Program-made: the position numbers and the translations under genes
Assembly: GCA_965219455.1 (NCBI GenBank)
Contig: OZ244744.1
Location: forward strand, 512,001-576,000
Length of the DNA stretch: 64,000 nt
From: Candidatus Latescibacterota bacterium
Lineage (GTDB): Bacteria > Latescibacterota > UBA2968 > GCA-2709665
Reading direction: 5' to 3'
The notes under the pieces: model-generated
Database searches by the model: none
Told to the model about the DNA's origin: nothing
Seen by the model: only the letters and a program-made list of their open reading frames with translations
Part shown: piece after piece, positions 5,539 through 63,801 of the stretch
How positions within the stretch are numbered: position 1 is the first letter of the stretch
How the letters are laid out: the number at the start of each line of letters is the position of its first letter

Positions 5539-5857
5539 GGGCACCTCCCGCTTAATACGCACGCGCCGGCGCACCGCTGTACGCCCTCAGCGCACGCTCC
5601 GACAGGCTCGAAGCGCGCGGCACATTCCCCGCGCGAAACGGCGACGCATAGGAAAAAAAAAGCGCCTAACCTACCAGGTGCCGAAAATTATTGACGAAGT
5701 TCCACAGTAACCTGTGGAATAACTTCCGGTTGGGTCACCCTTACGTAGATTCAAGGCACTTTTAGAGGTTGAATCCTGAAGATCCAGCCTCCACGAAAAA
5801 ATATAATCATTCCGTCCTGAAAACGCAAGCAGAACTCTGCGAATTGCCGGCGAGAAC

Positions 5858-54078: not shown

Positions 54079-54519
54079 ATGGGCGAGAGCGAGTCGATTA
54101 CGCAGGAGCAGATGAACGAGTTTCTGTTTTCGCAGGTTGTGCTGATGTTTCAGGGTGCGGCCTGGCAGCACATGGGCAAGGTGATGAACCCCGCGACCAA
54201 TAAGGTGGAACGTGACCTTGCCCAGGCGAAGCACTCGATTGATATGCTGGGCATGCTGGAGGCCAAGACAAAGGGCAATTTGAGCGATAACGAGCAGAAG
54301 TTCTTGGAGCACGCCCTTTACGAGTTGAGAATGAACTATATCGACGAGGCTAACAAGGGACCGGACGAGGCCGAAGCGCCCGCGGCCGACGCAGAAGCAC
54401 CCGCGGAGGAAAACGGCGGCGACGCGGCCGAAGCCGCTGAAGCAGAAGCGCCGAAGGACGAGGCGTCCGCGGAGGCGAAGGAGGAGGAATCCGGAGACGC
54501 GAAGGAGGAATCGGATTGA
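54079..54519 (+). CDS. DUF1844 domain protein with acidic tail
   Basis: DLAQAKHSIDML.ML..KTKGNL, L.ELRMNY. Confidence 0.8.
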   Translation: MGESESITQEQMNEFLFSQVVLMFQGAAWQHMGKVMNPATNKVERDLAQAKHSIDMLGMLEAKTKGNLSDNEQKFLEHALYELRMNYIDEANKGPDEAEAPAADAEAPAEENGGDAAEAAEAEAPKDEASAEAKEEESGDAKEESD

Positions 54520-55013
54520 AGCGTTCTCTCCTTCCCTTCTCCGTCCTGGTCCTGTTCTGGCTGGGCGGATGCGCTTACTATTCAACATCGGCCACCGGCG
54601 GGTCGGGTTTTCGCTCGGTGGCCGTTCCGCTGATGGAAAACGAGAGCCTGGAGCCGGAAATCCAGCAGGCGCTCACGGACAGCCTGATCCAGGCGTTCCT
54701 GCAGGATGCGGCGCTGCGCGTGATGGACGAGGACCGTGCGGACATTGTGCTTCGCGGTACGATCGTGGAGGTGCGGGACGACCCGTTTACGTACCGCGGC
54801 CAGGCCGAGCAGTACCAGATATCGGTCTTTCTGGACGTCAGTTGCTATGATGCAAAAAACAAGAAGCTGCTGTGGGAGGAGAAACGCCTGAAGGGATACG
54901 GCATCTACAACGCCGCCGGACAGCGCGAAGAGGCTCGCCTGGAGGGCCTCGGCGCGGCGTTCGAGATCCTGACGCGGGACATCGTGGACCAGACGCAGGT
55001 TGGTGGCTGGTAG
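54516..55013 (+). CDS. lptE: LptE-family lipoprotein
   Basis: Lipobox LGGC, SVAVP..EN, ADIVLRG.I, LWE. Confidence 0.7.
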   Translation: MKRSLLPFSVLVLFWLGGCAYYSTSATGGSGFRSVAVPLMENESLEPEIQQALTDSLIQAFLQDAALRVMDEDRADIVLRGTIVEVRDDPFTYRGQAEQYQISVFLDVSCYDAKNKKLLWEEKRLKGYGIYNAAGQREEARLEGLGAAFEILTRDIVDQTQVGGW

Positions 55014-55041
55014 AGATACCATCGAGGGCGCAAACAGGGGA

Positions 55042-55257
55042 ACATGGATATACAGGATAGGCAGGATAAAGGCAAGAGACCAGAAAAGCGGTACAAGCAT
55101 TCAGACGGGGCAAAGCAGGACACGGGCTGTGGTGGATGACGAGGCAGGTATGGGGGCTAAGAAGACGTACTGAACCGGTGGGAAATCTCCATGCGCATGT
55201 TTAACTGGTTTTTGCGACTTTTGTGATTCTCATCCTGTATATCCTGTCCATCCATGT
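55042..55257. repeat. CAGGAT-repeat inverted cassette 1
   Basis: ACATGGATATACAGGATAGGCAGGATAAA (55042-55070) ... ATCCTGTATATCCTGTCCATCCATGT (55232-55257). Confidence 0.9.
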
Positions 55258-55303
55258 AGGTCGTTGTTGGTAGCAAGAGACCATAGAGAGTAGATGCAGG
55301 GAA

Positions 55304-55643
55304 ACATGTATAGACAGGATAGGCAGGATAAAGGCAAAAAACGACTGTGATTCGTGTGATTATAATGATGGGCTGTGATTAAAGGCAAAAGCGGCGGAGA
55401 AGCGAGAAACTATGGATATATAGGATGAAGACCAAAACCCGACGATCGCGCGAACCGAAATCCCACCCTACCCACCCAGTCCATTCCTGCACTTTAATCG
55501 AACTAATCGCAAGCATTCAACAGTGGGTCACGTGGTGAATCGGATTTCGCTCGTCTTCCTGCCCGCGCATCTGCCTTAGTCACAGTAATCATAGTCTAAT
55601 CACGGTAATCACAGTCTATCCTGCTCATCCTGTCCATCCATGT
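55304..55643. repeat. CAGGAT-repeat inverted cassette 2 with nested TGTGATT inverted repeats
   Basis: Forward copy 55304-55332, partial copy about 55411-55426, reverse copy 55617-55643; inner IR 55343-55380/55578-55616. Confidence 0.88.
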
Positions 55644-55679
55644 AAATTGTCGTTAAACGACATCAATGAAACCTTACCC

Positions 55680-58208
55680 ATGAACGAAGCAGCGGCGAGA
55701 ATCAAGATCAACAAACTGCTCGAGGCGGCCGGGTGGCGGTTCTTCGATGAAGACGGCAAGCCGGGCAACATTCGCGTCGAACAGAAGGTCGTCATGAAGC
55801 ACGAGGATCTGGACGCTTTGGGCGACGATTTCGAGAATGCGACCGGTCGGATCGATTTCCTCCTCCTGAACGAGAAGGGCTTCCCGCTCGTCGTTCTGGA
55901 GGCCAAGTCCGAGGACAAGAATCCTCTTGTGGGAAAGGAACAGGCCCGGAAATACGCCCGTTCGCAGAACTGCCGCTTCGTTATCCTCTCCAACGGAAAT
56001 CTGCACTACTTCTGGGACCTCGACCGTGGTAATCCATACCTTGTCACATCCTTCCCCACGCCGGAGTCCGTAACCGGCTATAACAAAGTCCAACCCAACA
56101 CGCAGCGCCTGGTCGATGAGCGGGTCCGCGAGGACTACATTGTGCTCACCCAGCGGCCGAACTATGCTTCGGAAGCCGCCTGGAAAAACGAAGCCGAGCG
56201 CCCCGGCTTTATCAAATCCAATAAACTGAGTTTACTCCGCCCCTACCAACTCCGGGCCGTTCATGCTCTGCAGCGGGCGGTGAGAGACGGCAGAGACAGG
56301 TTTCTGTTCGAAATGGCCACGGGTACGGGCAAGACGCTCGTCGCCGCAGCGGTCATCAAGCTCTTTATGCGCTCGGGCAACGCATCCCGAGTCCTGTTTC
56401 TCGTGGACCGGCTGGAACTCGAGGAGCAGGCTCGCAAGGTCTTCTCCGCCCTGCTCTCGGCGGACTTCCAGACGGTGGTGTACAAAGAGCGGCGCGACGA
56501 CTGGCGCTCGGCGGAAATCGTCGTCACCACGGTCCAGTCGCTGCTGTTCAACAACAAGTATCAGGCTCTCTTCTCCCCTACCGACTTCGACCTCGTCATC
56601 TCGGACGAAGCGCACCGGTCCATCGGCGGAAATGCCAGGTCCGTATTCGACTATTTCGTGGGGTACAAACTGGGCCTGACCGCGACCCCCCGGGACTATC
56701 TCAAGGGATTCGACGAAACGCGTCCTGACACGCGGGACCCGCGCGAAGCCGAACGCCGCTTGCTCCTGGACACCTACCGCACCTTCGGGTGTGAAAGCGG
56801 ACAGCCCACGTTCAAGTACTCCCTGCTCGACGGCGTTAAGGACGGCTATCTGATCAACCCGACGGTTGTGGATGCACGCACAAAGGTGACGACCGAATTG
56901 CTCTCGGAACAGGGATTCGTCGTTTCCTTTACGGACGACGAGGGAGAAGAGCAGGAAGAGGCCTACAAAAAGCGTGAATTTGAGAAGCGCTTCTTTTCCG
57001 ACGCGACCAACCAGATCTTCTGCAAGACATTCCTGGAGAACGCGCTGCGGGACCCCGTCAGCGGCGAAGTCGGCAAGTCCATCATATTTGCGGTCAGCCA
57101 GAAACACGCGTCAACATTGACTCAAATCCTCAATGCGATGGCCCACATGATGTTTCCGGACAAATACCAGTCGAACTTCGCAGTGCAGGTCACGTCGCAG
57201 ATCGCGGATGCCCAGCGGTTTACCGTGAATTTCAGTAACAACAACCTGCTCGGATCGGGGAACTTTCTTCCCGCGTACCTTACGAGTAAAGCGCGGGTCT
57301 GCGTAACCGTTGGCATGATGACCACCGGGTACGACTGTACCGACATTTTGAACCTGGGACTGTTCCGCCCCATCTTCTCTCCCACCGACTTCATCCAGAT
57401 CAAGGGACGCGGTACGCGAAAACACAGCTTCCTTGAGCAGTTGCTCGATCCGGCCTTGGCGGAACGCGTAGATGAGCCCGATAAGATTGCGTTCAAACTG
57501 TTCGATTTCTTCGCCAACTGCGAATACTTCGAAACGGAGTTCAACTACGACGAAGTCTTGGGACTGCCTGTCTATCAGGATGGTGAAGAACGTGAGGGCG
57601 CGGAATCTCCCGGGGCCGACGCGGGCGCCTACGAATATCTGGGCAGGGACATCCTGTCCACGATCAAGGTCGAGGCCGTCGGTTCGGAAGGGATGAAGAT
57701 CGACCGCATGTTCTTCGAGAAATTCGAGGATACCGTGCGGAAGGACGACGTCATCGCCGCGGCCGTCGAGGCCGGTCAGTGGGACCGGGTGATCGATTAC
57801 GTCAACCAGGAGGTTTTCGACCGTCCCGAAGAGTACTATACTCTTGAAAAGCTGCGCCGGGCAGCGGCCGTGGACCGCCGCATCACCCTCAGGGAGATTC
57901 TGGAGAAGGTATTCGGGCTGATCCCGCGATTTAAATCCAGGGACGAAATGCTGGAAGAGGAATTCGCGAAGTTCGTGGCCGACTACACGCCGGAGGAAGT
58001 CGAGTCCATCCCCGCGATCAAGAACTACTTCAAGGCGTACGTGACCAGCGACCAGATCCGCCACATCATTGAAAAACGGGACTACACCGGCCTGGCCACG
58101 AACCCCGTTCTCTCAATGCAGGACCTCCGCGCAGTCCCGGAGAAATACCGCGAACTCGTCCCTGAATACGTCAAGGACTTTGTACCGTTAAACCAGTTCG
58201 CCGCTTAG
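55680..58208 (+). CDS. hsdR: type I restriction endonuclease subunit R
   Basis: IDF..EAK nuclease motif, QARKYA, LRPYQ, MATGTGKT, DEAHRS, GLTATP, MMTTGYD, QIKGRGTR. Confidence 0.92.
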   Translation: MNEAAARIKINKLLEAAGWRFFDEDGKPGNIRVEQKVVMKHEDLDALGDDFENATGRIDFLLLNEKGFPLVVLEAKSEDKNPLVGKEQARKYARSQNCRFVILSNGNLHYFWDLDRGNPYLVTSFPTPESVTGYNKVQPNTQRLVDERVREDYIVLTQRPNYASEAAWKNEAERPGFIKSNKLSLLRPYQLRAVHALQRAVRDGRDRFLFEMATGTGKTLVAAAVIKLFMRSGNASRVLFLVDRLELEEQARKVFSALLSADFQTVVYKERRDDWRSAEIVVTTVQSLLFNNKYQALFSPTDFDLVISDEAHRSIGGNARSVFDYFVGYKLGLTATPRDYLKGFDETRPDTRDPREAERRLLLDTYRTFGCESGQPTFKYSLLDGVKDGYLINPTVVDARTKVTTELLSEQGFVVSFTDDEGEEQEEAYKKREFEKRFFSDATNQIFCKTFLENALRDPVSGEVGKSIIFAVSQKHASTLTQILNAMAHMMFPDKYQSNFAVQVTSQIADAQRFTVNFSNNNLLGSGNFLPAYLTSKARVCVTVGMMTTGYDCTDILNLGLFRPIFSPTDFIQIKGRGTRKHSFLEQLLDPALAERVDEPDKIAFKLFDFFANCEYFETEFNYDEVLGLPVYQDGEEREGAESPGADAGAYEYLGRDILSTIKVEAVGSEGMKIDRMFFEKFEDTVRKDDVIAAAVEAGQWDRVIDYVNQEVFDRPEEYYTLEKLRRAAAVDRRITLREILEKVFGLIPRFKSRDEMLEEEFAKFVADYTPEEVESIPAIKNYFKAYVTSDQIRHIIEKRDYTGLATNPVLSMQDLRAVPEKYRELVPEYVKDFVPLNQFAA

Positions 58209-58235
58209 CCTCTTTAATTCAAAAAGCCGGAACTT

Positions 58236-58264
58236 ACATGGATAAACAGGATGGACAGGATAAA
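58236..58264 (+). repeat. CAGGAT repeat providing the GxxExxY start codon
   Basis: ACATGGATAAACAGGATGGACAGGATAAA. Confidence 0.9.
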
Positions 58265-58648
58265 AGGCTCGCACACGCCGACACCACCCGTAGGATTATC
58301 GGCTGCGCGATGCAGGTGATCAATGAGCTTGGGAGCGGCTTCCTGGAATCCGTTTATGAGAAGGCGATGACCGTCGCGTTAACCGACGACGGTGTGTCGC
58401 ACGAAGTACAGCAGCCCATTGACGTGCGTTTTCGCGGCAGAACCGTTGGCGACTTCGTCGCGGATATCCTGGTCGAAGACCGGGTCATCGTGGAACTGAA
58501 AGCCGTCAATTCGCTTACCGGCGAGCACGAAGCCCAGGTCATCAACTATCTAAATGCGACGGGGATCCCTGTGGGATTGTTGATCAACTTCGGGAAACCG
58601 AAACTGGAGTTTAAGCGGTTCACACGAACACGGAAAACACAAAATTAA
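58238..58648 (+). CDS. GxxExxY protein (PD-(D/E)XK-like)
   Basis: LGSGFLESVY, ADILVEDRVIVELKAV, AQVINYL, GLLINFG. Confidence 0.93.
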   Translation: MDKQDGQDKRLAHADTTRRIIGCAMQVINELGSGFLESVYEKAMTVALTDDGVSHEVQQPIDVRFRGRTVGDFVADILVEDRVIVELKAVNSLTGEHEAQVINYLNATGIPVGLLINFGKPKLEFKRFTRTRKTQN

Positions 58649-58963
58649 ACATGGATGCACAGGATAGGCAGGATAAAATCAACACCCGCAATCAGGTGAA
58701 AAAGGCCCAACCATATGGGTGAAGCAGTGGTCAAGTGTAATGCACGCGTTCAACACCGTCGCTCCGAGCGTAGGCGTAGGCGCCAGAAGATCTCTCGTAA
58801 GGACCGTATCTGGCTCTTGCATGTATGCCCGGTCGAATTGGTCGGACTTACCGTTTCGAAATTATACTGAACACGCTGTCTATCTCCAAAGGGTCCGGTG
58901 AGAATATGCAGGGTCCGGCATTTGTGTTTTTGAATTCATCCTGTTTATCCTGTTCATCCATGT
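58649..58963. repeat. CAGGAT-repeat inverted cassette 3
   Basis: Forward copy 58649-58677, reverse copy 58938-58963. Confidence 0.9.
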
Positions 58964-59011
58964 AAGTTTGAGGTTGGTAGCGAAAGACCATTGAGGGCGC
59001 GAACAGGGGAA

Positions 59012-60990
<1,979 letters not shown>

Positions 60991-61209
60991 CATGGATATA
61001 CAGGATAGACAGGATAAAGGCGGAAAGCCTAGAAAAGCGGTACGTACTCAGACGGAACAGAAGTAGAATCGCAGTTAACTGCAAGGCAGTATGCAGCAGC
61101 AAGCTCTGGGTAAAGAAAATACCCGCAACGGCAGGAATTGTTGATGCGCTGGCTGAACCTGATGTTTTGGGTTTGGGGTCTTTATCCTGTGCATCCTGTA
61201 CATCCATGT
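60991..61209. repeat. CAGGAT-repeat inverted cassette 4 (left repeat split by the intron)
   Basis: A(59011)|CATGGATATACAGGATAGACAGGATAAA (60991-61018) ... TTTATCCTGTGCATCCTGTACATCCATGT (61181-61209). Confidence 0.9.
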
Positions 61210-61224
61210 AAGTTGGGGTTTCTT

Positions 61225-63801
61225 ATGCTCGATAGCGAAACAAAACGCCGTATAGATACGGCTCGTGACATCCTGGTCGGTAAGGTGCCCGATCCGAAGA
61301 GCCAGGTCGAGCAGATTACGATCGCGTTGATCTACAAGTTCATGGACGACATGGACGCCGCGAGCGAAGAACTCGGGGGCACGCGGAGGTTCTTCGCCGG
61401 CGAGTTCGCCCGTTTCGGTTGGCCGAAGCTCATGCGTTCCGGCCTCGGCGGTCACGAGATGCTCGGCCTTTATGCCGAGGCGATTGACAGGATGCCTGAG
61501 AACCCGGGCATCCCGCCGCTTTTCCGCGATATCTTCAACAACGCGTACCTCCCCTATCGCGACCCGGAGACGCTCCGAGCTTTCCTTAAGATCATCGACG
61601 AATTCACCTACGACCACAGCGAGCGGCTCGGCGACGCCTTCGAATACCTGCTCTCGGTCCTCGGATCACAGGGCGACGCCGGGCAGTTCCGGACCCCACG
61701 CCATATCATCGACTTCATCGTTGCGGTCCTTGACCCGAAGAAGAGCGAAACCGTCCTCGACCCGGCCTGCGGCACCGCCGGGTTTCTGATTTCGTCGTAC
61801 AAGCATATCCTGGCGGACAATGCCGACGACAAGGGAATTGTTACCCTTACACCCGACGAACGAGAAAGACTCACGGCCAACTTGCAGGGCTATGACATCT
61901 CGCCGGATATGGTCCGCCTGTCGCTGGTAAACATGTACCTGCACGGCTTCCAGGACCCGCACATCTTCGAATACGACACCCTCACCAGTGAAGAACGCTG
62001 GACCGAGTACGCAGACGTGATTCTGGCCAATCCGCCGTTCATGTCGCCGAAGGGCGGCATCCGCCCGCACAACCGCTTTTCGGTGAAATCGAAACGGAGC
62101 GAAGTGCTGTTCGTGGACTACATGGCCGAACATCTCACGCCAGCCGGCCGCGCCGGGATCATTGTCCCGGAGGGCATCATCTTCCAGAGCCAGAACGCCC
62201 ACAAACAGTTGCGCAAGATGCTGGTGGAGGAATACCTGGTGGCCGTCGTCTCCCTCCCCGCAGGTGTCTTTAACCCCTACTCCGGCGTCAAGACATCCAT
62301 CCTCATCCTCGACAAATCCCTGGCGAAGAGGACCGACCACATCGCCTTCTTCAAAGTCGAAAACGACGGCTTCGACCTCGGCGCCCAACGCAGACCGATT
62401 GACAAGAACGACCTGCCGCAGACGCAACAGGCGGCGAAAGAATACATGGAAAATGTGGGGAACATGGATGGACAGGATGGGCAGGATAAAGACGAACCAC
62501 CCCCCTCTCCCGATGAGTCGGTCCTGGAGCAACTCATCCAGCAAGGGGCGGCGCTCATCGTCGAAAAAACAAAAATCGCGGATGGTGGGGAATACAACCT
62601 GAGTGGGGAGAGGTATAGGGAGACAACAAGGATCAGTAGTGCGGTCCCTTTTGTATCAATCGGCGAGATTTGTATTGTCAACCCGCCCAAATCTGAGCTC
62701 ACGGCGTTTCCAACGGATACAACAGTCTCATTTGTGCCGATGTCAGACATCAACGAGAACCAAATCACATTCGTCGCAAAGCAGCAGAAAATTCTAGGTC
62801 AGGTTGGTGCCAGCTACACTTACTTCGCAGACAATGATGTCTTGGTATCAAAGGTGACGCCATGTTTTGAAAACGGCAAAGCTGGGATTGCGAGAAATTT
62901 GAAAAATGGAATTGGATTCGGTTCCAGCGAATTCTACGTGATTCGAGCGTCTGAAGAGGTGCTTCCGGAGTGGGTCTATTATTGCGTTACACATGCGTCA
63001 TTTCGACAAGCCGGTATCGATAATATGACAGGAACAGGTGGACTTCAGCGTGTGCCGCGAAAGTTCATTGAGGATTTCCAAATCCCCCTCCCGTCAATTC
63101 AGTTGCAGCGAGAGATCGTGTCGGAGATCGAGGGTTATCAGCGGGTGATCGACGGCGCGCGCACAGTGATCGACAACTACCGGCCGCATATTCCCATCGA
63201 TCCCGACTGGCCGATGGTGGAGGTCCGTGAAATTTGTACTGTGAATCCCCGAAGATCGGAACTGGCTTCACTTAACGGCACAATATCCGTTTCTTTCGTA
63301 CCAATGGCCGATCTGGGCACCAACACCATGTATTTTGCAAGCCGACAATTCAAAAGTCTTGAGGATGTTGGGGCTAGCTATACTTATTTTAGGGACAATG
63401 ACGTCCTTCTCGCAAAAGTAACGCCGTGTTTTGAGAACGGTAAAGCGGGGATCGCGAACGGCTTGAGGAACGGTATTGGATTCGGCTCAAGCGAATTCTA
63501 TGTGCTTAGACCAACCCACATTGTACTCGCCGAATGGATATTTCTATGCGTCGCTACTGCCACATTTCGTAAATGGGCGACACCGCAAATGACTGGAACC
63601 GGCGGATTGCAGCGCGTGCCAAAAGCCGTATTGGAGAGCTACAGAATTCCCCTACCCTCCCGTGAGATTCAGAAAGGAATCGTCTCGGAAATCAAGAGCG
63701 AACAGGCACTCTTGGATTCAAACCGGACGTTGGTGAATCGGATGGAGAAGAGGATTCGGGCGGCCATCGGGAGGGTGTGGGGAGACGGGAGACAAAGATA
63801 A
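61225..63801 (+). CDS. hsdM: type I N6-adenine methyltransferase fused to a two-TRD specificity subunit (HsdM-HsdS)
   Basis: GQFRTPR, DPACGTAGF, NPPF, then two IPLPS-terminated TRDs. Confidence 0.92.
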   Translation: MLDSETKRRIDTARDILVGKVPDPKSQVEQITIALIYKFMDDMDAASEELGGTRRFFAGEFARFGWPKLMRSGLGGHEMLGLYAEAIDRMPENPGIPPLFRDIFNNAYLPYRDPETLRAFLKIIDEFTYDHSERLGDAFEYLLSVLGSQGDAGQFRTPRHIIDFIVAVLDPKKSETVLDPACGTAGFLISSYKHILADNADDKGIVTLTPDERERLTANLQGYDISPDMVRLSLVNMYLHGFQDPHIFEYDTLTSEERWTEYADVILANPPFMSPKGGIRPHNRFSVKSKRSEVLFVDYMAEHLTPAGRAGIIVPEGIIFQSQNAHKQLRKMLVEEYLVAVVSLPAGVFNPYSGVKTSILILDKSLAKRTDHIAFFKVENDGFDLGAQRRPIDKNDLPQTQQAAKEYMENVGNMDGQDGQDKDEPPPSPDESVLEQLIQQGAALIVEKTKIADGGEYNLSGERYRETTRISSAVPFVSIGEICIVNPPKSELTAFPTDTTVSFVPMSDINENQITFVAKQQKILGQVGASYTYFADNDVLVSKVTPCFENGKAGIARNLKNGIGFGSSEFYVIRASEEVLPEWVYYCVTHASFRQAGIDNMTGTGGLQRVPRKFIEDFQIPLPSIQLQREIVSEIEGYQRVIDGARTVIDNYRPHIPIDPDWPMVEVREICTVNPRRSELASLNGTISVSFVPMADLGTNTMYFASRQFKSLEDVGASYTYFRDNDVLLAKVTPCFENGKAGIANGLRNGIGFGSSEFYVLRPTHIVLAEWIFLCVATATFRKWATPQMTGTGGLQRVPKAVLESYRIPLPSREIQKGIVSEIKSEQALLDSNRTLVNRMEKRIRAAIGRVWGDGRQR
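62462..62490 (+). repeat. CAGGAT repeat in-frame inside hsdM-S
   Basis: ACATGGATGGACAGGATGGGCAGGATAAA, read as MDGQDGQDK. Confidence 0.9.

Follow-up and report, generated by a model that had tools for sequence, protein, structure and literature searches.

CAGGAT heptad repeats at a type I restriction-modification locus of Candidatus Latescibacterota and their pairing with a clade of GxxExxY genes

A 64,000-nt stretch of a Candidatus Latescibacterota genome (contig OZ244744.1, forward strand, positions 512,001-576,000; hereafter "the window") carries a type I restriction-modification (R-M) locus in which copies of a short CAGGAT repeat sit at the gene junctions and on both sides of a small gene of the GxxExxY family. 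This arrangement raises the question of what these repeats are and whether the GxxExxY protein, a member of a family with a nuclease fold, has any part in their upkeep. A preliminary description, made from the letters of the window, suggested that the protein recognizes or spreads the repeats. Here, we describe how the repeats are built, arranged, and distributed, how repeat types covary with GxxExxY clades, how a group II intron targets the repeats, in what kind of hotspot the locus lies, and which individual copies are conserved in place, using the source genome (G000) and further genomes compared with it (numbered G001 and onward); the genus set consists of G000 and 14 others (15 genomes). 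The explanation that we favor, with moderate confidence, is that the CAGGAT repeats are the arms of a family of hairpin-capable elements, whose autonomous-looking members encode one clade of GxxExxY proteins that drives their copying or maintenance.

The repeat family and its hairpin-capable cassettes

A scan of the window with the pattern CATGGATNNACAGGATNNRCAGGAT, allowing up to three mismatches, returned 10 matches (nine exact and one with a single mismatch), all within positions 55043-62487, against a mean of 0.00 in 100 dinucleotide-preserving shuffles; an additional, partial copy lies at 55409-55426. These numbers agree with the preliminary description, which had counted about 11 copies and noticed none in the first 55 kb: outside 55-62.5 kb, the short core CAGGATNNNCAGGAT has only one chance-like match with one mismatch, at position 5773. 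The repeat consists of three units that recur every 9 bp, ACATGGAT-nn-ACAGGAT-nn-RCAGGAT, mostly followed by AAA, and its full form reads CATGGATnnACAGGATnnRCAGGAT, with CATGGAT as the outermost heptad. The heptads of each copy are direct (CATGGATnnACAGGATnnACAGGAT), with no internal palindrome and no GTAG motif.

Along the window, plus-strand copies are followed by minus-strand copies, with the CATG ends pointing outward; the repeats are therefore the two arms of convergent elements. Five such hairpin-capable elements can be delineated, four of them gene-less and one with the GxxExxY gene (Table 1); the four inverted cassettes proposed earlier were recovered at the positions originally given. 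In the gene-bearing element, the second direct arm begins immediately after the GxxExxY stop codon. The first 67 nt of cassette A are 85% identical to cassette D. Cassette B, which encloses the partial copy, has a second repeat type (GTGATTA/TAATCAC) nested immediately inside its arms, at 55343-55385 and 55580-55616, and a relative at genome positions 591299-591655, and the right half of cassette D is kept upstream of hsdM in G012 and G001. When cassettes A, B, C', and D were searched by tblastn for remnants of the GxxExxY gene, nothing was found beyond 11-aa matches to the peptide that the repeat encodes (lowest E value, 0.006). In the paired arms, the heptads are common to both sides, and 204 of the 402 spacer bases are identical, against a shuffle mean of 186; the arms share their heptads but not their spacer bases, and it is the motif, not a perfect stem, that is kept.

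Three of the plus-strand arms are preceded by a conserved 30-nt leader, GAnAGACCATnGAGGGCGCnAACAGGGGAA (55013-55042, 55275-55304, and 58982-59011), which overlaps the stop codon of the lptE-like gene and holds a Shine-Dalgarno-like GGGGAA immediately before the ATG of the arm. A similar stretch precedes the arms in G006 and G009.

The G000 genome contains approximately 31 copies of the repeat, 15 of them within 567-594 kb of the genome and the others scattered singly. Most are intergenic, and the CATG end is often found 15-90 nt from the start or stop codon of a gene. All 14 other genomes of the genus carry the repeat (12 to 102 copies each, with 0 matches everywhere for a reversed-pattern control), as do 2 of 7 genomes from elsewhere in the family and 1 of 19 from the sister family. 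An exact-match scan, with one genome per species, identified at least 119 stretches, and the 80 loci kept from it belong to 13 named phyla, most commonly Chloroflexota (28 loci), Acidobacteriota (16), and Pseudomonadota (11). At these cross-phylum loci, 88 of the 150 copies are paired convergently within 400 bp, with loops in some pairs as short as 7 nt. In many cases, the repeat-bearing genomes look like metagenome-assembled genomes (MAGs) from sponge or coral hosts, with others having the look of soil, lake, and groundwater MAGs; sponge metatranscriptomes are among the sequencing runs that contain the window.

Comparison of orthologous sites shows both turnover and retention. A spacer between co-directional genes at genome positions 3368118-3368510 measures 27-53 bp in six genomes and 226-390 bp in G000, G003, G004, and G012, where it is filled with CAGGAT-type arrays that differ in unit number and variant and have a homologous interior. 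Judging from this comparison, cassettes are gained and lost at fixed sites among relatives. On the other hand, a copy located 43 nt upstream of gene 4837059 was found in 10 of the 12 genomes examined (G002 left out), including two in which it is degenerate, and is absent in the two closest relatives.

Table 1. Positions of the repeats and associated features (window numbering unless a genome is named)
Feature	Position	Strand	Details
Match starts of CATGGATNNACAGGATNNRCAGGAT	55043, 55232, 55305, 55618, 58237, 58650, 58938, 60991, 61184, 62463	+, -, +, -, +, +, -, +, -, + (in that order)	Pattern scan
Gene-bearing element	58236-58963		Arm 58236-58264 (+, holds ATG), GxxExxY ORF, direct arm 58649-58677 (+), closing arm 58935-58963 (-)
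GxxExxY/PDDEXK_3 gene, 136 aa	58238-58648	+	TIGR04256, E 7.9e-42; PF13366, E 2.2e-41
Gene-less cassette A	55042-55257		Arms 55042-55070 (+) and 55232-55257 (-); pattern scan
Gene-less cassette B	55304-55643		Arms 55304-55332 (+, 1 mismatch) and 55617-55643 (-); pattern scan
Inverted cassette C'	58649-58963		Arms 58649-58677 (+) and 58935-58963 (-); distal part of the gene-bearing element
Gene-less cassette D	60991-61209		Arms 60991-61019 (+, first base is 59011) and 61181-61209 (-); pattern scan
In-frame repeat copy	62462-62490	+	Encodes NMDGQDGQDK in the HsdM linker
lptE-like gene, last housekeeping gene before the island	54516-55013	+	Pfam LptE, E 5.7e-13
hsdR, type I restriction subunit, EcoAI-like	55680-58208	+	NCBIfam NF046051, E 7.4e-64; PADLOC REase_I, E 3e-56
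hsdM-hsdS, one ORF	61225-63801	+	PADLOC MTase_I, residues 30-497; Specificity_I, residues 506-678
Group II intron, 1979 nt	59012-60990	-	Reverse transcriptase (RT) ORF 59169-60539; TIGR04416, E 1.3e-106, 356.8 bits; Rfam RF02003, RF00029
Sister intron copies (outside the window)	G000 1946949-1948930, 2846937-2848887, 4658364-4660311, 4792995-4794973

The GxxExxY gene and the pairing of repeat type with clade

The product of the small gene is assigned to its family with scores far above the profile cut-offs (TIGR04256, 142.3 bits versus 35; PF13366, 141.3 bits versus 22). Its open reading frame (ORF) opens with the ATG contained in the arm at 58236, so that residues 1-9 (MDKQDGQDK) are encoded by the repeat itself. 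Among 56 sequences, Gly34, Tyr40, Asp76, Glu86, and Lys88 are invariant and Glu37 is at least 90% conserved; Asp76, Glu86, and Lys88 constitute the D...ExK motif of the PD-(D/E)XK superfamily. The AlphaFold2 model of the protein (pLDDT, 87.5), in which residues 1-9 are disordered, has its best fold matches in the PD-(D/E)XK proteins Cas4 (SSO0001), lambda exonuclease, a restriction-endonuclease-like protein, and Hjc. According to this model, the GxxExxY protein is a nuclease fold with an intact predicted active site. No relative with a solved structure was found by sequence at an E value below 0.01, and PADLOC has no model for this protein. GxxExxY/PDDEXK_3 is a large family of prokaryotes and viruses, whose function is given as "Unknown" in a 2012 superfamily survey (PMC3424549).

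The pairing of this gene with the repeat extends beyond the window. Metagenomic relatives were collected with six peptides, one of which was the repeat-encoded MDKQDGQD, and in the closest of them (61-68% identity) the CAGGAT arms lie, as in the window, at offsets of 0, ~+405, and ~+465. A homologue with 66% identity from an Anaerolineae MAG has a CAGGAT hairpin on each side of the gene; the gene and the repeat therefore travel together between phyla. Other GxxExxY genes, including those of more distant clades, are accompanied by other short-period repeats in the same layout, in which a direct copy coincides with the start codon or shortly precedes it and an inverted copy follows the stop codon; examples include ACTACGAAAnnnGCGAAA, CACAAAGACACGAAGACAC, AATCACAGTAATCA, and CACAAAAGGCACAAAA. 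Relatives at 49-60% identity bear related heptads, such as ACAGGATA (with a period of 8-9), CACGGAT, CGCAGAT, CGCAAAT, and CGCCGAT.

Overall, at least three words of one repeat class were detected in the 150-bp flanks of 82 of the 95 GxxExxY genes (on both sides in 72), as opposed to 178 of 3,000 random genome positions. When the repeat classes were placed on a tree of the 95 GxxExxY proteins, they required 22 changes, compared to 44-51 in 500 shuffles, and 24 of the 25 members of the clade that includes the window protein are of the CAGGAT type. This result supports the pairing of protein and repeat that the preliminary description had put forward.

Several GxxExxY genes also have direct-unit tandem arrays (3-5 units) upstream, such as those at G000 5492384-5492893 and L013 928-1336 and in L172, L178, and L185. 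Their units of 52-55 bp or 127-137 bp hold the arm, the ATG, and the first codons.

The restriction-modification operon, the group II intron, and the lptE-NUDIX hotspot

The R-M locus has the composition of a type I system, with HsdR, HsdM, and HsdS encoded together and the latter two in one ORF. Fused HsdM-HsdS orthologues of ~855 aa are encoded in six other genomes of the family; the fusion is therefore natural and does not stem from an assembly slip. The preliminary description had placed repeat copies at every gene junction, and the distances that it gave are exact: 36 nt separate the repeat end at 55643 from the hsdR start codon at 55680, 27 nt lie between the hsdR stop codon at 58208 and the next repeat at 58236, and 15 nt lie between the repeat end at 61209 and the hsdM start codon at 61225. 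However, the copy at 62462 proved to lie not at a junction but in frame inside HsdM. All 5 orthologues from the genus have this in-frame copy, which 2 orthologues of other genera lack, and its hexamers are identical in the four orthologues compared, in which 40-51 positions of the flanking 60-mers are identical. In G001 (L167), an 11-codon insertion (PVCRAGHGTGR) separates the first and second repeat units of the HsdM linker.

Upstream of hsdM, an arm is found 15-20 nt from the gene in 5 of the 7 orthologues, including one of another genus, and the sixth (G016) has a degenerate hairpin at this site. The seventh orthologue, from G013 (L166), has a CACAAAAGG-type hairpin at the same place in the hsdR-hsdM spacer, 330 nt upstream of hsdM. 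In G015 (L168), a member of another genus, the orthologous R-M operon is preceded by a long tandem array (positions 268-394) in which 11 or more CAGGATnnn units follow one another every 9 bp. Among 80 metagenome contigs, 13 have the arrangement hsdR-[R+ GxxExxY R+ R-]-hsdM.

The arm that begins at 59011 and resumes at 60991 had been listed earlier as one copy; what had been missed is that the split results from the homing of a 1979-nt group II intron, recognizable by its RT/maturase, ribozyme domains, GTGCG...CTAC ends, and pairing between exon-binding site 1 (EBS1) and intron-binding site 1 (IBS1). The G000 genome contains seven copies of this intron with at least 99.7% identity, all on the strand complementary to the repeat and directly after ...ATCCTGnnnATCCTGnnCATCCATG, so that at all seven the exon ends in ...ATCCATG. 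Intron nucleotides 215-221 read CATGGAT, in a loop flanked by GACCCG/CGGGG, and are complementary to the seven bases with which the exon ends. Seven further copies with this loop occur in other genomes of the genus, and six of them lie in a CAGGAT repeat, which brings the total to 13 of 14. In the sister intron subfamily (86-89% identity), the same loop is TGATAGC, TATCAGC, or TGACGGC, and the introns sit after GCTGTTA, GCTGATA, or GCCGTCA, all of them parts of a repeat of the CAGCnnT type with heptamer period. Introns with other loops in other genomes of the genus likewise sit after matching sequences, i.e., EBS1 and IBS1 covary. Judged from these sequences, intron targeting is ordinary EBS1-IBS1 pairing retuned to the CAGGAT repeat. 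Three internally deleted copies of the intron are found in G000 as well.

Homing of group II introns into repeated or mobile DNA is familiar from RmInt1, which inserts into ISRm2011-2, and from class C introns, which insert after terminators or in attC sites. The intron described here resembles those in being a retroelement aimed by EBS-IBS pairing at a multi-copy harmless target, with seven near-identical copies at the same position, but its target is the arm of a heptad hairpin, and sister introns with other EBS1 loops reside in the same genome.

On a larger scale, the locus lies in the interval between the lptE-like gene and a NUDIX gene, a conserved hotspot along which CAGGAT cassettes are found throughout the genus. 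In G004, G006, and G010, the repeat cluster likewise follows the lptE-like gene, and in these three genomes the interval consists of ~4 kb of CAGGAT cassettes with no recognizable genes. In G000, the same interval extends over 27.9 kb and includes, in addition to the R-M genes, those for Schlafen/AlbA_2, DUF3644, FRG-TPR, and SIR2_2 proteins, two DDE transposases, and two intron copies; all of these except the R-M genes and the first intron copy lie 3' of the window. By gene content, the R-M locus belongs to a defence island. The gene-poor, cassette-filled interval of G004, G006, and G010 suggests that the cassettes predate the defence genes of the hotspot, or at least exist independently of them. 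One of the transposase genes (DDE_Tnp_1_4, L162 16888-18255, genome positions 591888-593255) lies between the divergent repeat copies at 591802 (-) and 593784 (+); the second, weaker DDE gene is at L162 4566-6134.

Explanations for the repeats

In the explanation favored here, each arm is composed of two or three ACAGGAT heptads at 9-bp spacing, with arms facing each other across 7 to ~300 nt. Gene-bearing members carry one gene of a single GxxExxY clade, started by the ATG inside the arm, and gene-less members would be internally deleted derivatives. The nuclease would recognize the heptads of its own arms, leading to the copying or maintenance of the elements. The elements favor operon-internal spacers: five of them fill the spacers before hsdR and between hsdR and hsdMS, with a sixth copy tolerated in frame in the HsdM linker. 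The intron lineage has changed its EBS1 guide to CATGGAT and retrohomes into the arms as a safe multi-copy target.

Several observations weigh against this explanation. Binding or cutting of the repeat by the protein, as well as transposition and spread, are inferred from the layout and the covariation. The peptide MDKQDGQD used in the search biases the top relatives toward an arm at the ATG, albeit not toward the downstream arms, and the tree test overstates independence, since relatives share labels, so that it registers clustering and not independent events. The pairing proposed in the preliminary description is supported by the ATG within the arm, the arms bracketing the gene, and the repeat type following the tree, but the link within the genus is weak. 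A CAGGAT copy is found within 1.5 kb of only 3 of the 29 distinct GxxExxY loci of the genus (in G000, G009, and G011), and across phyla a GxxExxY gene is present at only 4 of the 80 repeat loci. Genomes of the genus encode 0-4 GxxExxY proteins each, and the CAGGAT-clade gene is found in only 3 of the 15 genomes (again G000, G009, and G011), with the repeat present in all 15. In the remaining 12, the repeat exists without a matching gene, and copy number does not track the gene: G012, the richest in copies (102), has no CAGGAT-clade gene, and two genomes with 14 and 28 copies (G003 and G008) have no GxxExxY gene at all, bearing in mind that the genus genomes are 92-99% complete MAGs in which repeat regions can be unassembled. 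No recurrent neighbor protein family was detected at the 80 cross-phylum loci, the largest cluster covering four of them, and the filled and empty spacer sites do not define a target-site duplication. Finally, conservation in place (upstream of hsdM, in frame in HsdM, and upstream of gene 4837059) is explained by a role in cis at least as readily as by selfish turnover.

A function in cis is the main rival explanation, although we regard it as rather unlikely overall. The repeats would then be host elements that act as operon-spacer hairpins in mRNA processing or stabilization, or as operators, with GxxExxY as their factor or a passenger, and would not be mobile now. Such a role would account for copies placed exactly between a stop codon and the ribosome-binding site of the next gene (between hsdR and hsdM here, in the metagenome contigs, and in the 3368118-3368510 spacer), for positions kept across species and genera with hexamers invariant while the flanks diverge, for the repeat without a matching gene in most of the genus, and for the hairpin of a different type in the same spacer of G013. 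However, matches to promoter and terminator consensus sequences do not exceed chance, and none falls on a repeat (4 sigma-70-like promoters versus 3.5 expected and 11 terminator-like sites versus 7.8 expected). A reading of ACAGGAU as a binding site of CsrA/RsmA, prompted by the resemblance of ACAGGAUG to the CsrA consensus, fails as well: no CsrA gene was found in the complete G000 genome. The emptiness of the 3368118-3368510 spacer in six relatives suggests that the element is dispensable there, and a purely regulatory motif leaves the ATG that every arm contains and the clade-specific repeat types unexplained.

Somewhat less likely still, in our view, is that the repeats are neutral landing pads or recombination scaffolds for mobile DNA and for the gain and loss of defence genes between lptE and NUDIX. 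The contrast between ~4 kb of cassettes in three genomes and the defence-laden interval of G000, the R-M module with the same repeats in 13 metagenome contigs, the intron aimed at the arms, and the transposase gene between two repeat copies would all be expected on this account. Nevertheless, the orthologues examined include neither rearranged nor inverted forms of the locus, and the order hsdR-cassette-hsdMS is constant in those 13 contigs and in the genus orthologues. The earlier suggestion that the repeats shuffle defence genes thus finds no direct support, although the hotspot context would be compatible with a scaffold role; about half of the G000 copies are, moreover, scattered singly, away from such genes. 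At the read level, four runs were checked as contigs that break at repeats. The joints in these contigs have ~25-nt sides with other letters between them, which indicates that they come from other repeat copies in the metagenome and makes them uninformative on excision or inversion. Coverage by the RNA run falls mostly on the intron; its depth of 1-2 over the GxxExxY gene is not evidence of transcription of this copy. That the repeats are a CRISPR-like array, a repetitive extragenic palindromic (REP) sequence or bacterial interspersed mosaic element served by a REP-associated tyrosine transposase (RAYT), or a miniature inverted-repeat transposable element (MITE) of a known transposase family is very improbable, despite the ~27-nt repeats between unique stretches and the inverted doublets reminiscent of REP doublets forming hairpins (REPINs) and of terminal inverted repeats. 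The preliminary description had correctly set the repeats apart from CRISPR and from GTAG-type REP sequences: the orientation alternates, the direct heptad iterons lack GTAG, the interiors range from 7 to 340 nt (from 46 to more than 2500 nt in the scan of the window), and no cas gene was found among the ORFs scanned. The only two Y1_Tnp matches in the genome (1912863 and 1922948, at 1.91-1.92 Mb) have no copy near them, and no transposase family recurs near the repeat in the 80 loci.

If the repeats are indeed the arms of elements served by the GxxExxY protein, their closest parallel would be the REPIN/RAYT partnership, in which short extragenic repeats are over-represented as hairpin-capable inverted doublets (Bertels & Rainey 2011, PMC3116915). 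The two systems share such doublets, formed here by 88 of 150 copies, at tens to ~100 copies per genome, as well as a cognate gene that is present in 0-1 copy, is flanked by repeats, and falls into clades that pair with repeat groups. They differ in the protein (a PD-(D/E)XK-fold GxxExxY protein in place of a Y1 HUH transposase), in the arm (2-3 direct heptads at 9-bp spacing in place of a GTAG-headed palindrome), in the start codon that is part of the arm, and in the persistence of the repeats without the gene in the genus; the mobility of the element described here is putative. MITEs and their autonomous insertion sequences similarly combine terminal inverted arms, short gene-less forms beside a gene-bearing form, and presence or absence that varies among relatives at a fixed intergenic site, but the elements considered here have iteron arms, no known transposase family, no defined target-site duplication, and gene-less interiors unrelated to the gene. 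The ORF-bearing intervening sequences (IVSs) of 23S rRNA, such as that of Coxiella burnetii with its S23p ORF (PMC4990558), are also selfish inserts with inverted repeats and an ORF of ~120 aa that reside in a transcribed unit without breaking it; they differ in lying in rRNA and not in an operon spacer or protein linker, and in lacking a nuclease-fold cargo. The only four-helix-bundle gene of G000 (TIGR02436, IVS-protein-like; 2594265-2594585) is flanked by another short-period family, with GGAGACG heptamers.

A literature search, supplementary files aside, returned no description of repeats tied to GxxExxY/PDDEXK_3 genes or, among the hits listed, of an ACAGGAT intergenic repeat. Apparently new are the CAGGAT type and its spread across phyla with the R-M module, as are the copy that HsdM reads in frame, the hotspot between lptE and NUDIX, and the intron lineage retargeted to the repeat. 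On a more speculative note, to which we give somewhat less than even credence, GxxExxY proteins might generally be sequence-specific heptad-iteron nucleases that, together with their hairpins, form an undescribed class of compact selfish elements with co-evolved heptads in more than 10 phyla, the old copies of which have been co-opted. Such an element would be ~0.5 kb long and would encode a single 125-aa protein, with the start codon built into its arm, and it would prefer operon-internal spacers and be tolerated in frame within proteins; the older copies would have become fixed parts of operons, as in the R-M locus, and a niche for specialized group II introns.

For the GxxExxY family, a private co-varying repeat provides a specific candidate substrate that can be put to the test. 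Should the protein act on the arms, the pair would be a second partnership of the REPIN/RAYT kind, with a different mechanism, and would account for many of the short-period repeats found in annotations, as well as for unusual N-terminal peptides of the MDxQDxQDK kind. As for the locus itself, it shows a defence island in a hotspot along which such elements are arrayed, a group II intron that can be retargeted to them by seven guide-base changes, and an element that can reside in an operon, and even in a protein linker, without breaking either.

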